From a virus (lineage: Duplodnaviria; Caudoviricetes), in the IMG/VR virus record IMGVR_UViG_3300034012_002112, positions 1 to 58,647 of that record: a stretch of 58,647 bases of DNA, one strand, 5' to 3'. Below, in pieces: positions 25,553 through 52,887 of this stretch. Every line of letters starts with the position of its first letter. Position 1 is the first letter of the stretch. The position numbers and the translations under genes were made by a program. Under the pieces are notes generated by a model, which had not been told where the DNA came from, searched no databases, and was given only the letters and a program-made list of their open reading frames with translations.

Positions 25553-25580
25553 TGGGTAGTTTTACGTCGTGCCCAGGACG
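25553..25580 (-). promoter_or_regulatory. leader pseudoknot motif, copy 1
   Basis: CGTC-CTGGGCAC-GACG-TAAAAC-TACCCA. Confidence 0.75.
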
Positions 25581-28733: not shown

Positions 28734-29023
28734 GGGTCAGAGTCTACCTCCTCTGGATCAGGGTTCTGTTCCATTTGCTTCTTTTCTTCATATTGGAAGT
28801 ATTCGTCAGCAATCTCTCGCATGCAGCTGTAGATCACTGAATCGTAGTGACCGCAACCACGCAAGAAATCAACAACATGACGAACAATGTTGTCACAAAA
28901 TACTTCCTGAAATGTTGTCAGGTTCTGGCTATTGCCATCCTGATGCAACAGATAGAAGGTGTCATGAGGAAGCTCCTCATTAACTGGAAGAATAAAATCA
29001 AATCCAACCTTTTCTTTTTCCAT
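28721..29023 (-). CDS. hypothetical protein
   Basis: 100 aa; VDFLRGCG motif. Confidence 0.7.
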   Translation of the reverse strand: MEKEKVGFDFILPVNEELPHDTFYLLHQDGNSQNLTTFQEVFCDNIVRHVVDFLRGCGHYDSVIYSCMREIADEYFQYEEKKQMEQNPDPEEVDSDPVLG

Positions 29024-29826
29024 TAGAAAGGCGCCTCCTCCAGCTCAGGTGCTGCACCATATTGACCAGGCAAATCAGGCAGACCAGTGTTGACAGACCA
29101 TGGATCAGTCTCTTCCTCTGCTTGACGCCCGCCCCACAGAGGAGTGACGTTATCCGATGCAACCGTGGTAGATGGCTGAATGGTTTGCGTTGATGGGGTT
29201 GTGCTTCCTTTGGGTGCAAGAGTCATGGAAACCAATTGAATCTTGGTTTGCGACTTCTTATCTCCATTAGCATCCTTCCATGCATCAGTCACCAGCCTGC
29301 CCTGGATAGTTAACCCAGTTCCTTTCTTGGTAAAGTTCACCAGAAGTTCAGCGTTATTAAGCTTATCTTCTGCTGTATTGATGGCATAGAAATTGAAAAG
29401 ATCTGCCTGATTCCTACCTGTATTTACAGACAGGGTTTGATTGCAAATCATCAACCCACTTTCCGTAGTTTTAAACGCCCTGGCATCGTCAGTAGCAATG
29501 TCTTTAACGCAACGGCCGCCGAGGATGACGGTGTTAAGCATCGGAAACTGATCATTGACCTGTACAACAGTGCCGCCATGGAGCGAGTGCGTTCTGCTTT
29601 CAAGGTCGAAGCGTAGCTTTGCGCCGTGAACGTAGATGTAGTTTCCCTTCTTGAGTCTTGAGAAACGCTCAGAGTTCTTTCCATAGATGTTGAGATCGAG
29701 TTGGGTTTGAGCTTTGTTACCAACAGGCGGCAGGATGACCGTGCAACGCATGGCGGTAGATGATGCTGAAGTAAAAACCTCACGCGGATCCTCGGACAGA
29801 TACGCGTAGACGCAAGCAAAGTTCAT
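29023..29826 (-). CDS. ssb: single-stranded DNA-binding protein, two OB folds
   Basis: NFACVYAYLSEDP...RLKKGNYIYV; NTVILGGR...KKGTGLTIQGRLVTDAWKD; acidic EEAPF tail. Confidence 0.85.
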   Translation of the reverse strand: MNFACVYAYLSEDPREVFTSASSTAMRCTVILPPVGNKAQTQLDLNIYGKNSERFSRLKKGNYIYVHGAKLRFDLESRTHSLHGGTVVQVNDQFPMLNTVILGGRCVKDIATDDARAFKTTESGLMICNQTLSVNTGRNQADLFNFYAINTAEDKLNNAELLVNFTKKGTGLTIQGRLVTDAWKDANGDKKSQTKIQLVSMTLAPKGSTTPSTQTIQPSTTVASDNVTPLWGGRQAEEETDPWSVNTGLPDLPGQYGAAPELEEAPF

Positions 29827-29846: not shown

Positions 29847-29873
29847 AGGCAGTTTAACGTCATACCTGGGACG
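29847..29873 (-). promoter_or_regulatory. leader pseudoknot motif, copy 3 (ssb leader)
   Basis: CGTC-CCAGGTAT-GACG-TTAAAC-TGCCT. Confidence 0.8.
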
Positions 29874-30135: not shown

Positions 30136-31956
30136 TTAGTGCGTTTGAGCCCAGGTGCTGCCGACCCGTGAGTCGCCATCAATCTTACAGCGAAATCCAA
30201 AGAATTCCTGCGCTTGTGGGAATGCACGCATGGCTTGTTCTCTGATGGTCTCAGTCAGGTCCTTAGGGCAAGACACCTGGATCTCATCGTGAATCATGGC
30301 GTGTTGAATCCAATGGCGCTCGTGTACTAAACCAAGCTCTGACAAATTGTCATGTAAATTAATAACAACTTGTTTCATGATGAGTGCGCCTGCTGCTTGC
30401 AATAGAAGATTCAATCCTTTGAATTCAGATCGACAAAACAATGCACGTTGATCTAATCCACGTAGATAACCACGGGATTGGATTGTAGATGCAATGTTTT
30501 CTTTCAATGATTTAAGAGCTGGCACACCTTTCATGAATGAATTAATTGCAGAACTTCCTAGTTGACGCAGAACTTCTGGATCTTTTTCATTCGGATTAAT
30601 GATAGTACCTGCCTTCATAGCGCCACATCCATAGAGCATTCCATACAAGAGACGTTTGCTTACGTCCCTGTTATCCACACCAAACTGTTGTTGGTTGTAG
30701 GTATGGATGTCAATGGATTCATCTGTTACCAGACGGGCGTATTCTCCGTCATCCCAGATGGCTAAGTATCCGGCCAAGCAACGTAACTCAAGAGCCTTAG
30801 CATCGACCCCAATAAGGTCCCAACTATGAGGAGCGTGGAAAAGGTTTCGGCATTCTTTTCCATAGGGGGAGTAAGCTGCTGGGACCTGACCCATGTTTGG
30901 ATTGCGGTGTGCGCAGCGCCCGCTAATGCAACCGTTAGTAACCAAATCCCCATGCATACATAGGTCATCGTTGTTAACGAGCTTGAGCCAAGCATTGTTT
31001 CCATCTGCGATTTGTCCCAGACGTTTTTTAACAAGCATGTATTCAGCTAAGGGCTGTGCTTCGGGGTAGGGCAAAGCCGCGAGTATATCGTCGTCAAGTA
31101 TTGGATTTCCTTTTTCCGTTGTTTTTTCAGGCGTCCATCCGTACTTCTGTCGTAGTCGGTCTGCAATTTGAGTACGAGATCCCGGATTGAATTCCTCAAA
31201 GCGAACCTTCGTGAAGGGCTGACCTTTGACATAGCCACGGCTTTTGTTATTCACCTTAGGGATGAACGTTTCCTCATGCCGTATCGGCGGAAACAATTCC
31301 TTTAGGTGGACCTCAAGTTCCGCTTGCTTTGCTCTAAGGACATCCACAAGATCAAGGCATGCATCAATATCAAAAGGAAAGCCTGCTCGAATTTGTCGGT
31401 TAATTGCCAGAGCAAAGTCATGTTCGAGCTTGAGTGCCGGACCTGGGTATTGCTGGGACGCAATGAAGCGCCAGAGTTTGAGGGTGACTTGAACATCCTG
31501 GACGCAGTAGTCCAGCATCTCTTGAGAATATTTGGAGAAGTCTTTGAACTCGATCTTATGATCGGCCAAGCGCCATCCCCATGCCTTAAGAGAAGCGGTT
31601 CCTCGGTTCTTCTTTGGAACCTGCGGATATTGTTCATTGTCCAGTTCCTCCAGAACTTCCTTTGGCCAGATCAATCTGGTGCAAATAAGCGTGTCGATGA
31701 TGCGGCATTTGAGGTTAAATGAATGCAGCTTTTGTAGAACCGGTACGTCATAGAAGATCACATTGTGACCAATGAGTACATCAGCGGTTGCCAGATGAGC
31801 AAGAGCATCATCAATGCGATCAGGCCCATAAGTAAAAGTTTCTGCTCTCGTAATGTCATAGATGACAATGCAGAAAATTTGCGTGACCTTGTCATACAAA
31901 CCATCAGATTCCAGGTCAAAGATCAGCCATGTTTCACTTTCTGAAACGGGCTTCAT
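30136..31956 (-). CDS. polA: DNA polymerase family A (T7-like) with 3'-5' exonuclease
   Basis: FDLESDG, GHNVIFYD, YCVQD; DAKALELR, KRLLYGMLYG, IHDE; start uncertain (track ORF extends to 32028). Confidence 0.95.
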   Translation of the reverse strand: MKPVSESETWLIFDLESDGLYDKVTQIFCIVIYDITRAETFTYGPDRIDDALAHLATADVLIGHNVIFYDVPVLQKLHSFNLKCRIIDTLICTRLIWPKEVLEELDNEQYPQVPKKNRGTASLKAWGWRLADHKIEFKDFSKYSQEMLDYCVQDVQVTLKLWRFIASQQYPGPALKLEHDFALAINRQIRAGFPFDIDACLDLVDVLRAKQAELEVHLKELFPPIRHEETFIPKVNNKSRGYVKGQPFTKVRFEEFNPGSRTQIADRLRQKYGWTPEKTTEKGNPILDDDILAALPYPEAQPLAEYMLVKKRLGQIADGNNAWLKLVNNDDLCMHGDLVTNGCISGRCAHRNPNMGQVPAAYSPYGKECRNLFHAPHSWDLIGVDAKALELRCLAGYLAIWDDGEYARLVTDESIDIHTYNQQQFGVDNRDVSKRLLYGMLYGCGAMKAGTIINPNEKDPEVLRQLGSSAINSFMKGVPALKSLKENIASTIQSRGYLRGLDQRALFCRSEFKGLNLLLQAAGALIMKQVVINLHDNLSELGLVHERHWIQHAMIHDEIQVSCPKDLTETIREQAMRAFPQAQEFFGFRCKIDGDSRVGSTWAQTH

Positions 31957-32167
31957 CTTGAATTGAGAAGTTTTCACTGGGGAGAGTTTGGTCATTTTCG
32001 TTAATCCACGCCAAGATTTGCTGTGCACCAGCCCTATATGGGTGGGAGTAAATCTTGTTCAGAGCTACTTCTGAATCTAACGGAATTAACTGAAATGCAT
32101 TGGTTTGAGAGCAGGCTGTAATGGCGTACGGCCTGCCCTCCTTCCAAGTAGCGATAACGTAAGACAT
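31934..32167 (-). CDS. hypothetical protein
   Basis: 77 aa. Confidence 0.65.
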   Translation of the reverse strand: MSYVIATWKEGRPYAITACSQTNAFQLIPLDSEVALNKIYSHPYRAGAQQILAWINENDQTLPSENFSIQDEARFRK

Positions 32168-32223: not shown

Positions 32224-32994
32224 TCAGGATTTATGTGGATTTAATTTGCCGTATCCCACAAATCCCCCTTCCTTCTTACGTTGAGTCAGGGCTTTCATCG
32301 CATCAGACCCAGCCCTCTGGCTGCCATGCACCAGGAGTGCAAACGGTTTGTCACCCAGGCAGTGGCTGTCGTCATGATCGATCTCCAGTCCTTGCTCAGC
32401 TGCGTCTGCCTCGGTGTAGACCACATGTGCTACACGGGTAAAGACCTTGGGATACTTGGGGATTAGGTAATCGAGAGTACCGCCAAAGGATGCAGTGAGA
32501 TAGAAGTTGGATGGTATGGAATCTTGAAGAGCCAGCCACATGCCTAGTGATTTGGTGTAGGCATAGAACTTCTGTTGTGGCCGCTCTTGTGCCACCATCA
32601 TCCAAGCCTTCATGTAGTTCTCAGTCCAGAAGTCACCTGACTCATGGATACGAACCAGTTGCTTTGGTGGGTGCATCAATAGCGAAAGATCAATTAGATC
32701 ACGCAACAGCTTGGCCTGGTTCCCATTCATGTGAATGGTTTCACGTAGCAGATCCCAGTTGTGCCAACGGGCATCACGTACGTTTGGCCTGACTTCTGCC
32801 ATGGCAGCAAAGCAACGGTAGTCATCAGTTGCTTCGACGCCTGTGTACTGAGGCAGATCAGTGATGGCACCAGTGGTGCGGTCTGCAAATGTCTTGCACA
32901 CACCAGCATGCGGACATGAGTAACCAGCTGGCAGCGAGAAGATCAAACGGTTCTTAAGCTTGCCGTTACCAGTGGAGAACTTAAGGAGTTTCAT
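32224..32994 (-). CDS. phage GP88-like protein
   Basis: GNGKL, FSLPAGYSCPHAGVC...CFA, RIHESGDF, FYAYTK. Confidence 0.8.
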   Translation of the reverse strand: MKLLKFSTGNGKLKNRLIFSLPAGYSCPHAGVCKTFADRTTGAITDLPQYTGVEATDDYRCFAAMAEVRPNVRDARWHNWDLLRETIHMNGNQAKLLRDLIDLSLLMHPPKQLVRIHESGDFWTENYMKAWMMVAQERPQQKFYAYTKSLGMWLALQDSIPSNFYLTASFGGTLDYLIPKYPKVFTRVAHVVYTEADAAEQGLEIDHDDSHCLGDKPFALLVHGSQRAGSDAMKALTQRKKEGGFVGYGKLNPHKS

Positions 32995-32996
32995 GA

Positions 32997-33221
32997 TCAG
33001 TAGATTTCAGTTGTGTTGAATTGAATTGACCAGTTACTGGCAGCAGTAAACGGAATAGTTCCGTAATACATGCCATCAGAATCCACAAGATCAATCATGA
33101 CCTCATGGGTATCCAGGGAGAATCCAATCCCTGAACACATGTACTGAGCATCGTTCTCATTGATAAGCATTGCCCCCTTAAGGCAATTGATATCAATGGT
33201 ACTAAGACCAAGGATTTCCAT
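32997..33221 (-). CDS. hypothetical protein
   Basis: 74 aa with CAATTCAATTCA leader. Confidence 0.65.
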   Translation of the reverse strand: MEILGLSTIDINCLKGAMLINENDAQYMCSGIGFSLDTHEVMIDLVDSDGMYYGTIPFTAASNWSIQFNTTEIY

Positions 33222-33257
33222 TGAATTGAATTGAGTTGAGTTAATAAGCTGAGCTTA

Positions 33258-33285
33258 TGAATGAGTTTAGGGACATCTCAGGTCC
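33258..33285 (-). promoter_or_regulatory. leader pseudoknot motif, copy 4
   Basis: GGAC-CTGAGAT-GTCC-CTAAAC-TCATTCA; compensatory stem 1. Confidence 0.75.
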
Positions 33286-33299
33286 ATCAATAATTTAAA

Positions 33300-33464
33300 G
33301 CAGACCAGGGATTCTGTACACAGATTTTAAGTAAGGGTCGGCCCTTACTCCCCGGCTTGCTTCATCGTTGGTTCAAAGCACAGCTTCCACCCTGTGCATT
33401 GACGGAATCCGCAACTGAGCCTGAAATCAGTTGCTTAACAAACTCGTGGCCACGAGTGGTCTGC
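33300..33464 (-). ncRNA. closed multi-branch structured RNA, unassigned (strand not certain)
   Basis: Plus-strand spelling: GCAGACCA/TGGTCTGC closing stem; GGATTCTGT/ACGGAATCC, AGTAAGGG/CCCTTACT, GCACAG/CTGTGC, GCAACTGA/TCAGTTGC, CTCGT/ACGAG. Confidence 0.7.
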
Positions 33465-33476
33465 AGAACCAAAAGA

Positions 33477-33482
33477 ATTATA
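33477..33482 (-). promoter_or_regulatory. -10 box TATAAT
   Basis: Perfect TATAAT 12 nt upstream of the structured RNA's closing stem. Confidence 0.6.
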
Positions 33483-33488
33483 AGGGTA

Positions 33489-33833
33489 TCAAGACAGTGT
33501 CGTGGATCCACGGAATTTTTCTCGGCTCATCCGTAATGTGATCTGATCCCCATGGTCTGGAACCTCGTTAGGTCCCTGGTGGACCAGCAGCTCCCAGATT
33601 GTTCTGTTGGTTTTCATAAGGTCTTGACAATACTTGACAATCAATTTGTCCTTATCTTGACCGGGTTTATACTTCAGGATTTTCTTGGAAATCCCAAACG
33701 GAACGTCTTCATTGTCCTGTGTGTAGCAAGCAATCCAGTAATGGGCTGTGCGTTGAGGTTGCGTTGAGTTAATAAAACCTTTCATTGTGTTAAGGTCTTT
33801 GAGTCCTATGTAATCATGGGGCGTTACCCGCAT
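33489..33833 (-). CDS. hypothetical protein
   Basis: 114 aa; start may be 33785. Confidence 0.65.
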   Translation of the reverse strand: MRVTPHDYIGLKDLNTMKGFINSTQPQRTAHYWIACYTQDNEDVPFGISKKILKYKPGQDKDKLIVKYCQDLMKTNRTIWELLVHQGPNEVPDHGDQITLRMSREKFRGSTTLS

Positions 33834-33998
33834 AGAAGATTGCGATTAGAGCTTGGTTGCGTGAGACCAAGTTTGAATCTTCCTAATCTCCAGTGCATCA
33901 CTCCACCTGGTGCATTGAAGATTTGTTTTGTGTAACGGAGTGAACGACATCATATACATCAATCGTCATATACTTTCCGTATTAATAGATACAGAACA

Positions 33999-34151
33999 AT
34001 GACCCTGACGTATCGGGGTTGCAAGTACGAACAAGCAACCCAAGCTCAAACGGATCGTGAGTGGTGGAACTTAGCACACCGCCCCTGGCTGGTGCTGGTG
34101 TACCGTAGCATCTGCTACTTCCCCTTTGTCACTGGAGGTCAGATCAAATGA
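33999..34151 (+). CDS. DUF4278-like small protein
   Basis: MTLTYRGCKY...LVYRSICY: two LxYRG/S-x-xY units. Confidence 0.65.
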   Translation: MTLTYRGCKYEQATQAQTDREWWNLAHRPWLVLVYRSICYFPFVTGGQIK

Positions 34152-34264: not shown

Positions 34265-34513
34265 TCTCCACTCAGCCAATGGACCCTCAGATTCCTCTGG
34301 GGGTTTTTGGTATGGAGGCATCAGGTCTCCGTTCTCATCAATGATTCCAGCATTGATTAAGAACTGACGGGCTTGTTCTGGTTCCTTGTACTTCTCAATC
34401 AAGTCATTGATCTGCTGTGAACACAGCTTCTCCAATGATTGGGAATTCTCTGCAGAAGAGTCCTTTGATTCCTTCTGCGATTTCTCGATGTTCGAGTTGG
34501 GTTCCTGGGTCAC
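34235..34513 (-). CDS. hypothetical protein
   Basis: EQARQFLINAGIIDENGDLMPPY; start overlaps thyX. Confidence 0.55.
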   Translation of the reverse strand: MTQEPNSNIEKSQKESKDSSAENSQSLEKLCSQQINDLIEKYKEPEQARQFLINAGIIDENGDLMPPYQKPPEESEGPLAEWRSEGRGVLFF

Positions 34514-35063
34514 AGCGAAGTTGGAGGTAGTGGATCCATGAACGCAGTGTACCGTTCATGTACAAACGAGTTGGTGTCGCAAGAGGCAGAATGAATCGAG
34601 CTGATTCCTTTGCTACGCCTTCACTGATCATCTCCTGGTAGAGATGCTTGGAATCCTCCAGGATGTTGGACATACGCCGGTAGTAGTGAGCAAGCTTGTC
34701 ACCACCAAGGCGTTCCTTTAGATCATCGTTGGAGTTCTGCCTGTTCTTGTAGTCCTGGCTACGCAGGTGCGGCATGGTAATGCTGCCTACATCAGTGATG
34801 TCTGCGTAACGCTGACTGAATTCCTGGAAGCTGAATGAACGATGCCTCAGGATCTGTGGTGAGATAGCACGTGTTGTGTTGATTTCAACACACATGTTTC
34901 CCATTTCGAATGGGGACCAGTGCTTGTGTTTGATGAGGTATTGCAACAGCCGTGGGGCTGTATCCATATTGTCTTGATTCTTCGGGGCTGATACCCGAGC
35001 CATCTTGACAATCATTTCTTCTGCATTGGGTGTTGACCAGATTAAGTTGACGTTCATTGTCAT
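34404..35063 (-). CDS. thyX: flavin-dependent thymidylate synthase
   Basis: HWSPFE, QILRHRSFSFQEFSQRY, KESARFILP, TQLEHR. Confidence 0.97.
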   Translation of the reverse strand: MTMNVNLIWSTPNAEEMIVKMARVSAPKNQDNMDTAPRLLQYLIKHKHWSPFEMGNMCVEINTTRAISPQILRHRSFSFQEFSQRYADITDVGSITMPHLRSQDYKNRQNSNDDLKERLGGDKLAHYYRRMSNILEDSKHLYQEMISEGVAKESARFILPLATPTRLYMNGTLRSWIHYLQLRCDPGTQLEHREIAEGIKGLFCREFPIIGEAVFTADQ

Positions 35064-35269
35064 TTGCAATGCAGTAGGTAATGGTACTTGGCACCCCAAG
35101 GGTCTGTATATCTAACAACATCACATCCTTGATACTGATCAATGACCTTGAACTTCTCCTCCTGCGTATCAGGAGATTGAAAGATCATGGCAATGATGAC
35201 AAGGATGAAAGCACTGATAGTAAGTCCCCAAAGGGTTCCTTGCAGGATCATGCGTGCACGTGTATCCAT
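35060..35269 (-). CDS. small membrane protein
   Basis: TM helix then FKVIDQYQGCDVVRY. Confidence 0.7.
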   Translation of the reverse strand: MDTRARMILQGTLWGLTISAFILVIIAMIFQSPDTQEEKFKVIDQYQGCDVVRYTDPWGAKYHYLLHCK

Positions 35270-36760: not shown

Positions 36761-36836
36761 TGGTACCCGAGGTGGGATTCGAACCCACGCTGGAACGATT
36801 TTAAGTCGTTTGCCTCTTCCGCTGGGCTACTCGGGC
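36761..36836 (-). tRNA. trnL: tRNA-Leu(TAA), short variable loop
   Basis: GCCCGAG/CTCGGGT, AACGA-CTTAAAA-TCGTT, GTGGG-TTCGAAT-CCCAC, ACCA end; 76 nt. Confidence 0.92.
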
Positions 36837-38842: not shown

Positions 38843-38870
38843 TGAGCAGTTTAATGTCATGCTCAGGACA
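38843..38870 (-). promoter_or_regulatory. leader pseudoknot motif, copy 5
   Basis: TGTC-CTGAGCAT-GACA-TTAAAC-TGCTCA; perfect 6-bp second stem. Confidence 0.85.
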
Positions 38871-41021: not shown

Positions 41022-41049
41022 TGAGAAGTTTAACGTCATACTCAGGACG
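41022..41049 (-). promoter_or_regulatory. leader pseudoknot motif, copy 6
   Basis: CGTC-CTGAGTAT-GACG-TTAAAC-TTCTCA. Confidence 0.8.
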
Positions 41050-52527: not shown

Positions 52528-52695
52528 ATGACTGTTGCAGGCAACACCCAAGACGACTATTTTGATATAACCAAGTTCGAGCAACTACTCAATCGCTTGG
52601 AGTCGTCTAAGCAACGCCAACAACGCCAAAAGAGCGTTGAAGGTCGTCGCGATATCTTTACTACCGGTTTAGCCGGTATGATGAGCAACTTCTGA
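52528..52695 (+). CDS. small protein, tandem paralogue A
   Basis: MTVAGNTQDDYFDITKFEQLLNRLESSKQRQQRQKSVEGRRDIFTTGLAGMMSNF. Confidence 0.85.
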   Translation: MTVAGNTQDDYFDITKFEQLLNRLESSKQRQQRQKSVEGRRDIFTTGLAGMMSNF

Positions 52696-52705
52696 TAATA
52701 GAACA

Positions 52706-52873
52706 ATGACTGTCGCAGGAAACACCAACGACGACTATTTTGATATCAGCAAGTTTGAGCAACTGCTTGAGCGTCTGGAATCATCCAAGCAACGCCAGCA
52801 GCGCCAAAAGAGCGTTGAAGGCCGTCGCGACATTTTTGCTACCGGCCTGGCCGGCATGATGAGCAACTTCTGA
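52706..52873 (+). CDS. small protein, tandem paralogue B
   Basis: MTVAGNTNDDYFDISKFEQLLERLESSKQRQQRQKSVEGRRDIFATGLAGMMSNF. Confidence 0.85.
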   Translation: MTVAGNTNDDYFDISKFEQLLERLESSKQRQQRQKSVEGRRDIFATGLAGMMSNF

Positions 52874-52887
52874 TCTGAGCTGGTAGT

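Follow-up and report, generated by a model that had tools for sequence, protein, structure and literature searches.

The window, a 58,647-base IMG/VR virus record with an estimated completeness of 74%, carries on its minus strand a conserved structured RNA of ~175 nt, in which compensatory base changes go beyond those found in controls. The element is non-coding, as no reading frame is kept open family-wide, and it forms an accessory, single-copy and patchily distributed discrete module, carried by a minority of the freshwater cyanophages related to Synechococcus phage S-EIVl. Sequence comparison is best read as placing it in a new RNA family with no filed relative in Rfam, and the interval is probably a stand-alone phage small RNA (sRNA) gene of this new family that would be transcribed early by the host polymerase.

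S-EIVl is the nearest isolate of the window (69.9% DNA identity over the GP88 gene). Judging from the annotation of its neighbours, the RNA sits within the replication module, in a gap flagged by a first-pass annotation of the window. The genes that flank this gap are all on the minus strand:

34404-35099, minus: thyX
33489-33833, minus: unknown ORF of 114 aa, upstream of the RNA
33222-33488: flagged gap between two minus-strand ORFs
33296..33470, minus: conserved structured RNA, ~175 nt (covariance-model match 33295-33472, 165.3 bits)
32997-33221, minus: 74-aa ORF
32224-32994, minus: GP88-family gene
30136-32028, minus: polA
29023-29826, minus: SSB

The ends of the RNA in the window were placed from the -10 box (5' end) and from the last conserved helix together with a module boundary (3' end). 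The upstream ORF probably encodes 98 aa, counted from a conserved MKGF start. It has no sequence match in Pfam, PHROG, NCBIfam or the PDB and no Atlas lead, and its predicted model (pLDDT 79.5) has no Foldseek match at E-values up to 0.001. It is present in 16 of 58 full-flank loci, and only two of those records have the RNA. The 74-aa ORF between the RNA and the GP88 gene has no homologue among the 58 full-flank related loci and no family match; a duplicated copy of a CA-rich leader is present there. This leader (CAACTCAATTCAA..ATG) has seven copies on the minus strand of the window (27038, 33009, 33219, 36743, 39714, 40992 and 42768), which stand immediately 5' of start codons and contain no Shine-Dalgarno sequence. 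Elsewhere in the window, positions 52528-52874 hold a 169-nt direct repeat in two adjacent copies that are 85% identical.

Homologues, covariation and strand

Eighty related loci were fetched via the GP88 protein, and blastn found the element body in two of them (L007 and L028). Further homologues came from sequence-pattern scans built on conserved stretches, which returned 3, 5, 13, 15 and 5 stretches from viral contigs and 27 from metagenome contigs; all pattern-found stretches were scored with a covariance model built on six sequences. The main set comprises 41 covariance-model matches, equal to 26 distinct sequences, and six more distinct sequences lie beyond it, five of them with a divergent 3' domain. 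The total is thus 32 distinct homologues from contigs of uncultured phages or of metagenomes; in some cases, a viral and a metagenome locus are the identical contig. Because homologues were found by pattern, the constancy of two features described below, the P3 loop and the P5 apex, is partly a matter of ascertainment. The 5' and 3' patterns nevertheless cross-validate each other: sequences found with the 3' pattern keep the 5' hairpins unchanged, and vice versa.

Searches beyond this set were negative. Blastn of the window and L088 elements against 50,697 phage records found no match in isolate phages, and the covariance model finds no element in the whole S-EIVl genome. Among cellular genomes (185,579 species), the 3' pattern returned 0 stretches and the 5' pattern returned two, both in Actinomycetota MAGs. 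We regard these two as chance matches because the model gives them only 18.2 and 12.1 bits and their agreement is limited to the 25 pattern bases; by our own estimate, about one or two matches to the 5' pattern are expected by chance in the cellular collection.

The element also has no counterpart among filed RNA families. With Rfam 15 at gathering scores, the only match in the whole window is a tRNA at 36764-36836. At E-values up to 10, the region 33100-33650 matches three snoRNA models only, all at chance level (E 0.46-7.1; 14.8-18.4 bits against gathering scores of 36-50), and five homologous loci searched at E-values up to 0.05 have nothing at the element. ARAGORN reports no tRNA or tmRNA in 32900-33900. 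The Rfam motifs of cyanophages and cyanobacteria (i.e. manA, wcaG, PhotoRC-I/II, the glutamine riboswitch and the Yfr RNAs) resemble the element in host range, habitat and conserved intergenic structure, but none scores on the interval at E-values up to 10; this includes manA, wcaG and PhotoRC-II, which the first-pass annotation had named for checking. Full-text literature searches on S-EIVl and cyanophages and on cyanophage noncoding intergenic RNA brought up no account of such an element among the papers listed.

We then analysed base pairing in the homologues. RNAalifold, run on six sequences aligned with plain MAFFT and not fitted to any model, gives 40 pairs, 15 of them with compensatory changes. 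Across the 26 distinct sequences, whose alignment was fitted to the covariance model and so favours pairing, standard pairs occupy 97.3% of 1006 cells, a cell count inflated by kinship among the sequences; the more robust measure is that 23 of the 40 pairs have changed on both sides. None of 500 shuffles scored as high on any of five measures, and pairing reached only 36-51% in a slid control, in which partners were moved by 1-3 columns. A homologue alignment of the kind suggested in the first-pass annotation thus bears out a conserved pairing.

That annotation had held that wobble pairs leave the strand open. Across the family, G-U pairs number 75 against five A-C cells, and pairing would drop from 97.3% to 90.4% on the complementary strand. 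The excess of G-U over A-C, together with the promoter described below, settles the RNA on the minus strand of the window, in the sense of the surrounding genes. Folding against shuffled sequence, another check suggested there, also came out in favour of structure, with z-scores for 33300-33482 of -3.26 (minus strand) and -5.58 (plus strand). Among 25 distinct homologues, the mean is -4.19 for the sense strand and -2.91 for the antisense strand, and the sense value is the lower one in 22 of the 25 sequences. The window belongs to the three that deviate, and we attribute its antisense-favouring value to a closing stem that is private to it.

The interval had also been described as free of ORFs. 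This holds in that no conserved ORF is present; it does not hold literally, because mechanical ORF calling places frames of 36-59 aa across parts of the interval. Only 6 of 25 homologues have a frame that is open throughout in sense, and only 7 of 25 in antisense, and element lengths vary across homologues without a period of three.

Architecture of the RNA

The conserved architecture opens with two invariant 5' hairpins. An optional hairpin comes next, then one whose loop reads GU-N-GAAG, and the 3' domain is Y-shaped. In the window, the parts are placed as follows:

33458..33470, minus: P1, 4-bp hairpin with a self-complementary CUGCAG in the loop region
33442..33457, minus: P2, 6-bp hairpin with loop GGCC, a perfect 16-bp palindrome as DNA
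33411..33434, minus: P2a, optional variable hairpin carrying a GGCT loop, absent or replaced in many homologues
33374..33401, minus: P3, hairpin with a conserved 8-nt loop RGU-N-GAAG at 33384-33391
33356..33369, minus: conserved joiner, core GAUGAAGCA
33298..33355, minus: Y-shaped 3' domain, made of P4, P5, joiner UAAAAU, P6 and the Pa 3' strand
33350-33355 with 33305-33310, minus: P4, changes on both sides at 6 of 7 pairs
33330-33349, minus: P5, loop CCGA, changes on both sides at 3 of 8 pairs
33313-33324, minus: P6, changes on both sides at 2 of 5 pairs
33298-33302, minus: Pa 3' strand
33300..33307 with 33457-33464: window-specific 8-bp 'closing' stem, competing with P1, P4 and Pa

The two 5' hairpins are under the strictest constraint of the whole element and remain unchanged even in the subfamily with a diverged 3' domain. 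P1 is invariant in sequence apart from a 2-nt central insertion in two distinct homologues. Its centre accordingly reads CTGCAG in 29 of 31 sequences and CTGATCAG in the other two at the DNA level, which as RNA gives a loop of CUGCAG (29/31) or CUGAUCAG (2/31). In P2, 10 of 25 sequences show double-sided changes at two stem pairs, and U-G wobbles occur; the loop is GGCC in 29 of 31 sequences and GCGC in two, where it sits on two different stems. In their variants, the loops of both hairpins stay self-complementary.

Downstream of the optional hairpin, P3 has changes on both sides at 9 of 10 pairs. The centre of the conserved joiner (33358-33362) can pair with the 3' tail (33298-33302) to form a basal helix, Pa. 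According to RNAduplex, this helix is found in most of 25 distinct sequences with a shifting register, and loci L083, L119 and L104, which have divergent joiners, have tails that match them. The divergent subfamily (L125, L126, L127, L131 and L132) differs in sequence and keeps the same architecture.

Two structural proposals of the first-pass annotation are not supported by this family-wide view. It had described a closed multi-branch RNA on the basis of a perfect 8-bp stem, which is indeed present in the window at 33300-33307 and 33457-33464; among 29 testable distinct sequences, however, the stem is perfect in one, has one mismatch in another and has two or more mismatches in 27. A proposed tertiary contact between GGCT and AGCC loops fares no better, since the GGCT loop sits on the optional hairpin, an insert that many homologues lack.

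Promoter, ends and neighbourhood

The 5' end of the element is marked by a predicted promoter:

33477..33482, minus: -10 box TATAAT, 6 nt ahead of the opening GG of helix P1

The first-pass annotation had noted this TATAAT (33482-33477) 12 nt from the 8-bp stem and had taken it as the RNA's own promoter, a view that conservation of the box upholds. Among the 31 distinct homologues that have the 5' end, a box at this fixed offset fits nAnnnT in 31 and TAnnnT in 29, and the box reads TATAAT in 13, TATATT in 7 and TATACT in 5. A consensus promoter scan of the window finds no -35 partner for the box. In two homologues the same scan places a sigma-70-like promoter at the -10 position of the element, i.e. 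TCGACA-17-TATAAT in L088 (score 11/12) and TTGACG-16-GATAAT in L086 (score 10/12). On this sequence pattern, the RNA is predicted to have its own promoter at its 5' end.

The 3' end is less sharply marked. A terminator scan after the RNA finds no terminator-like or canonical intrinsic site in the window, L086 or L088; in L127, a U-run directly follows the basal helix of the 3' domain. A comparison of two loci is informative here: L083, which has the RNA, and L013, which does not, are near-identical from 3 nt past the last helix and unrelated before it, so that the end of the RNA coincides with the edge of the inserted module. Read-through from the RNA into the next gene may occur.

The element is rare. 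The covariance model finds it in two of 50 whole related GP88-bearing records (one copy each) and in one of 14 records that are at least 90% complete; four carrier records have a single match each. Where present, the RNA always lies between thyX and polA in the same sense as the replication genes. The genes next to it differ between loci: of 30 distinct ones, 14 have the unknown ORF directly upstream. On the downstream side, the GP88 gene follows within 400 nt in 12 loci, a convergent small ORF abuts the 3' end in 13, with its stop overlapping the RNA tail, and the remaining loci have other or truncated downstream contexts. This variable downstream neighbour argues against a leader of the riboswitch type.

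In 26 of the 30 distinct loci, the small ORF has a homologue no more than 1.6 kb from the RNA, and such a homologue is near GP88 generally in 30 of 58 full-flank loci, a comparison that ignores relatedness. The protein encoded by the small ORF has a charged and aromatic character, unlike a membrane peptide, and matches DUF4278 at 21.3 bits, under the Pfam cut-off of 25.3. In the window, the corresponding 50-aa ORF is on the opposite strand (33999-34151, plus), ~530 nt upstream of the RNA and without overlap; the small ORF does not overlap the RNA in L007, L028, L083 or L087 either. A further conserved site that resembles a promoter, TTGAGT-16-TACAAT in the sense direction, is found in L086 (6472-6499) and L088 (5013-4986); it falls inside the beginning of the convergent small ORF, ~330 nt away from the RNA on its downstream side.

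Beyond its 3' end, the RNA of the window is followed by a repeated motif, which starts at 33285 and whose presence had been correctly noted in the first-pass annotation as the next of a series of 'pseudoknot copies':

33264..33285, minus: hairpin + TAAACT motif, outside the RNA; the motif precedes several minus-strand genes
25558-25580, 29851-29873, 33264-33285, 38848-38870 and 41027-41049, minus: all five copies of hairpin + (T)TAAACT in the window

The motif has a covarying 4-bp stem and a conserved loop and stands 25-45 nt before start codons, one copy lying right after a terminator-like hairpin. Complementarity between its loop and that of a following AUAAGC hairpin is not kept in L028 or L115. 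We regard the motif as a candidate for a phage-specific promoter or a site of RNA processing. Where GP88 follows the RNA, the motif stands between the two; in relatives that have no RNA, it precedes GP88 directly, and in L013 it comes directly after the upstream ORF.

The related loci also contain another conserved and structured intergenic motif, which is ~110-125 nt long and has stems that covary; its places include the following:

L052 2834-2947
L087 11662-11773, minus
L125 1755-1873
L127 410-529, minus

nhmmer finds this motif at 55 places in the fetched loci, in most cases 60-170 nt ahead of the start of GP88 in relatives without the main RNA; in L087, L125 and L127 it is directly 3' of the main RNA. 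It does not occur in the window and has no Rfam match.

Possible roles of the RNA

A conserved and strand-specific structure, a promoter element, the absence of coding capacity, an optional single-copy module and a variable neighbour together lead us to infer a stand-alone sRNA gene, which we consider the probable nature of the interval. The unassigned phage sRNA envisaged by the first-pass annotation is in this respect supported, given the conserved compensated pairing, the conserved -10 box and the lack of an Rfam match. In such a gene, a host sigma-70-type polymerase would transcribe the minus strand from the element's own -10 box, with a start at about 33470 and an end near 33296, and would yield a separate RNA some 140-200 nt long. 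The two invariant 5' hairpins with their self-complementary loops would form its working surface, a placement suggested by the strictest constraint and the self-complementary loops both falling on P1 and P2; these loops may be the binding site of a protein partner or of another molecule of the same RNA. In this scheme, stability and a defined 3' end would come from the Y-shaped 3' domain as an end module. When the window is scanned for targets, neither the P3 loop nor the full 11-nt joiner has a complement outside the element; a shorter 8-nt joiner complement also occurs at 31950 and 37940.

Phage sRNA genes of the 'moron' type are the closest parallel in several respects: like them, the element has its own -10 box, is a sharp-edged insert, occurs in single copy and is patchy. 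It differs from them in that it has no similarity to filed RNAs, no usual terminator and no known target. Phage-borne RNA of similar size is known from phi29 (pRNA), and ROOL and GOLLD are self-assembling noncoding RNAs. The element is of similar size, and its two loops could pair between molecules, but these loops are self-complementary and do not match a second loop; it also lies in the replication module, apparently without a link to a phi29-type packaging module. Self-complementary loops (CUGCAG or CUGAUCAG in P1; GGCC or GCGC in P2) fit pairing between copies and fit DNA palindromes equally well. We think it quite unlikely, though conceivable, that the RNA works as a homo-oligomer, its copies pairing loop to loop into dimers or longer assemblies. 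If it did, it would in principle be akin to the self-assembling RNAs, as a small version encoded by a phage, and the GGCC to GCGC double change on two stems would represent covariation between molecules.

Instead of acting as a free sRNA, the element could be a cis-acting 5' element, i.e. an attenuator, a riboswitch-like sensor or a put-like antiterminator that sets read-through into the replication genes. The HK022 put RNAs are twin hairpins near a promoter, and the element resembles them in its two adjacent promoter-proximal hairpins and in having the sense of the downstream genes; it is, however, much larger, has an extra conserved hairpin and a three-way junction, and has a variable downstream context. 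A cis role would agree with an orientation that is always sense, a position always between thyX and polA, a structure that begins at the predicted +1 and the lack of a clear terminator after the RNA in most members, and read-through would be useful where sense genes resume beyond the convergent ORF. Yet the immediate downstream gene is not constant and is on the opposite strand in 13 of 30 loci, and where GP88 does follow, the promoter-like hairpin + TAAACT motif intervenes, which serves GP88 alone in relatives without the RNA. The more specific idea of the first-pass annotation, a riboswitch-like leader for an operon leading to GP88 and polA, is not supported either, as GP88 is downstream in only 12 of 30 loci and 48 of 50 related GP88-bearing records express these genes without the element. 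Moreover, no conserved alternative pairing was seen, the sole alternative stem being the 8-bp closure private to the window, and neither the homologue alignment nor the window scan revealed a conserved terminator or a helix that sequesters a start codon. On balance, a cis-acting role appears rather unlikely.

Two further readings have still lower probability in our assessment. That the RNA is an antisense or 3'-overlapping regulator of the DUF4278-like small ORF, comparable to a type I antitoxin, is suggested by the overlap of the convergent stop with the RNA tail and by the frequent proximity of small-ORF homologues (26/30 against 30/58 GP88 loci generally, an enrichment figure that ignores relatedness). 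We judge it very unlikely, as there is no overlap in the window, L007, L028, L083 or L087, the overlap covers few bases where it does exist, the protein is charged and aromatic rather than a membrane peptide, and the DUF4278 match is sub-threshold. Highly improbable, too, is an element that works purely at the DNA level, whether as operators formed by palindromes at +1 to +30 or as a signal of the replication module for single-strand initiation or for an origin. As DNA, both P1 and P2 come close to or reach a perfect palindrome, and their centres stay palindromic when they change; they also lie inside the replication module, and folded single-stranded DNA tolerates G-T wobbles. However, covariation extends over four more helices with non-palindromic loops, wobbles break the P2 palindrome in three distinct sequences, and neither palindrome recurs in the window beyond chance. 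There is also no GC-skew feature or change near 33.4 kb, and an origin would not be absent from 48 of 50 relatives.

A role is known for only a few of the structured RNAs found in phages, and hardly any come from freshwater cyanophages. The RNA described here is compact, and its covariation support is unusually good for a small family. It is a defined and synthesisable object, and RNA family libraries would gain a new entry with it. Its two invariant hairpins point to a specific partner, and as an optional, self-contained module the putative sRNA gene resembles a gene carried for an advantage in some hosts rather than for the core cycle. Candidate advantages are host takeover or counter-defence.
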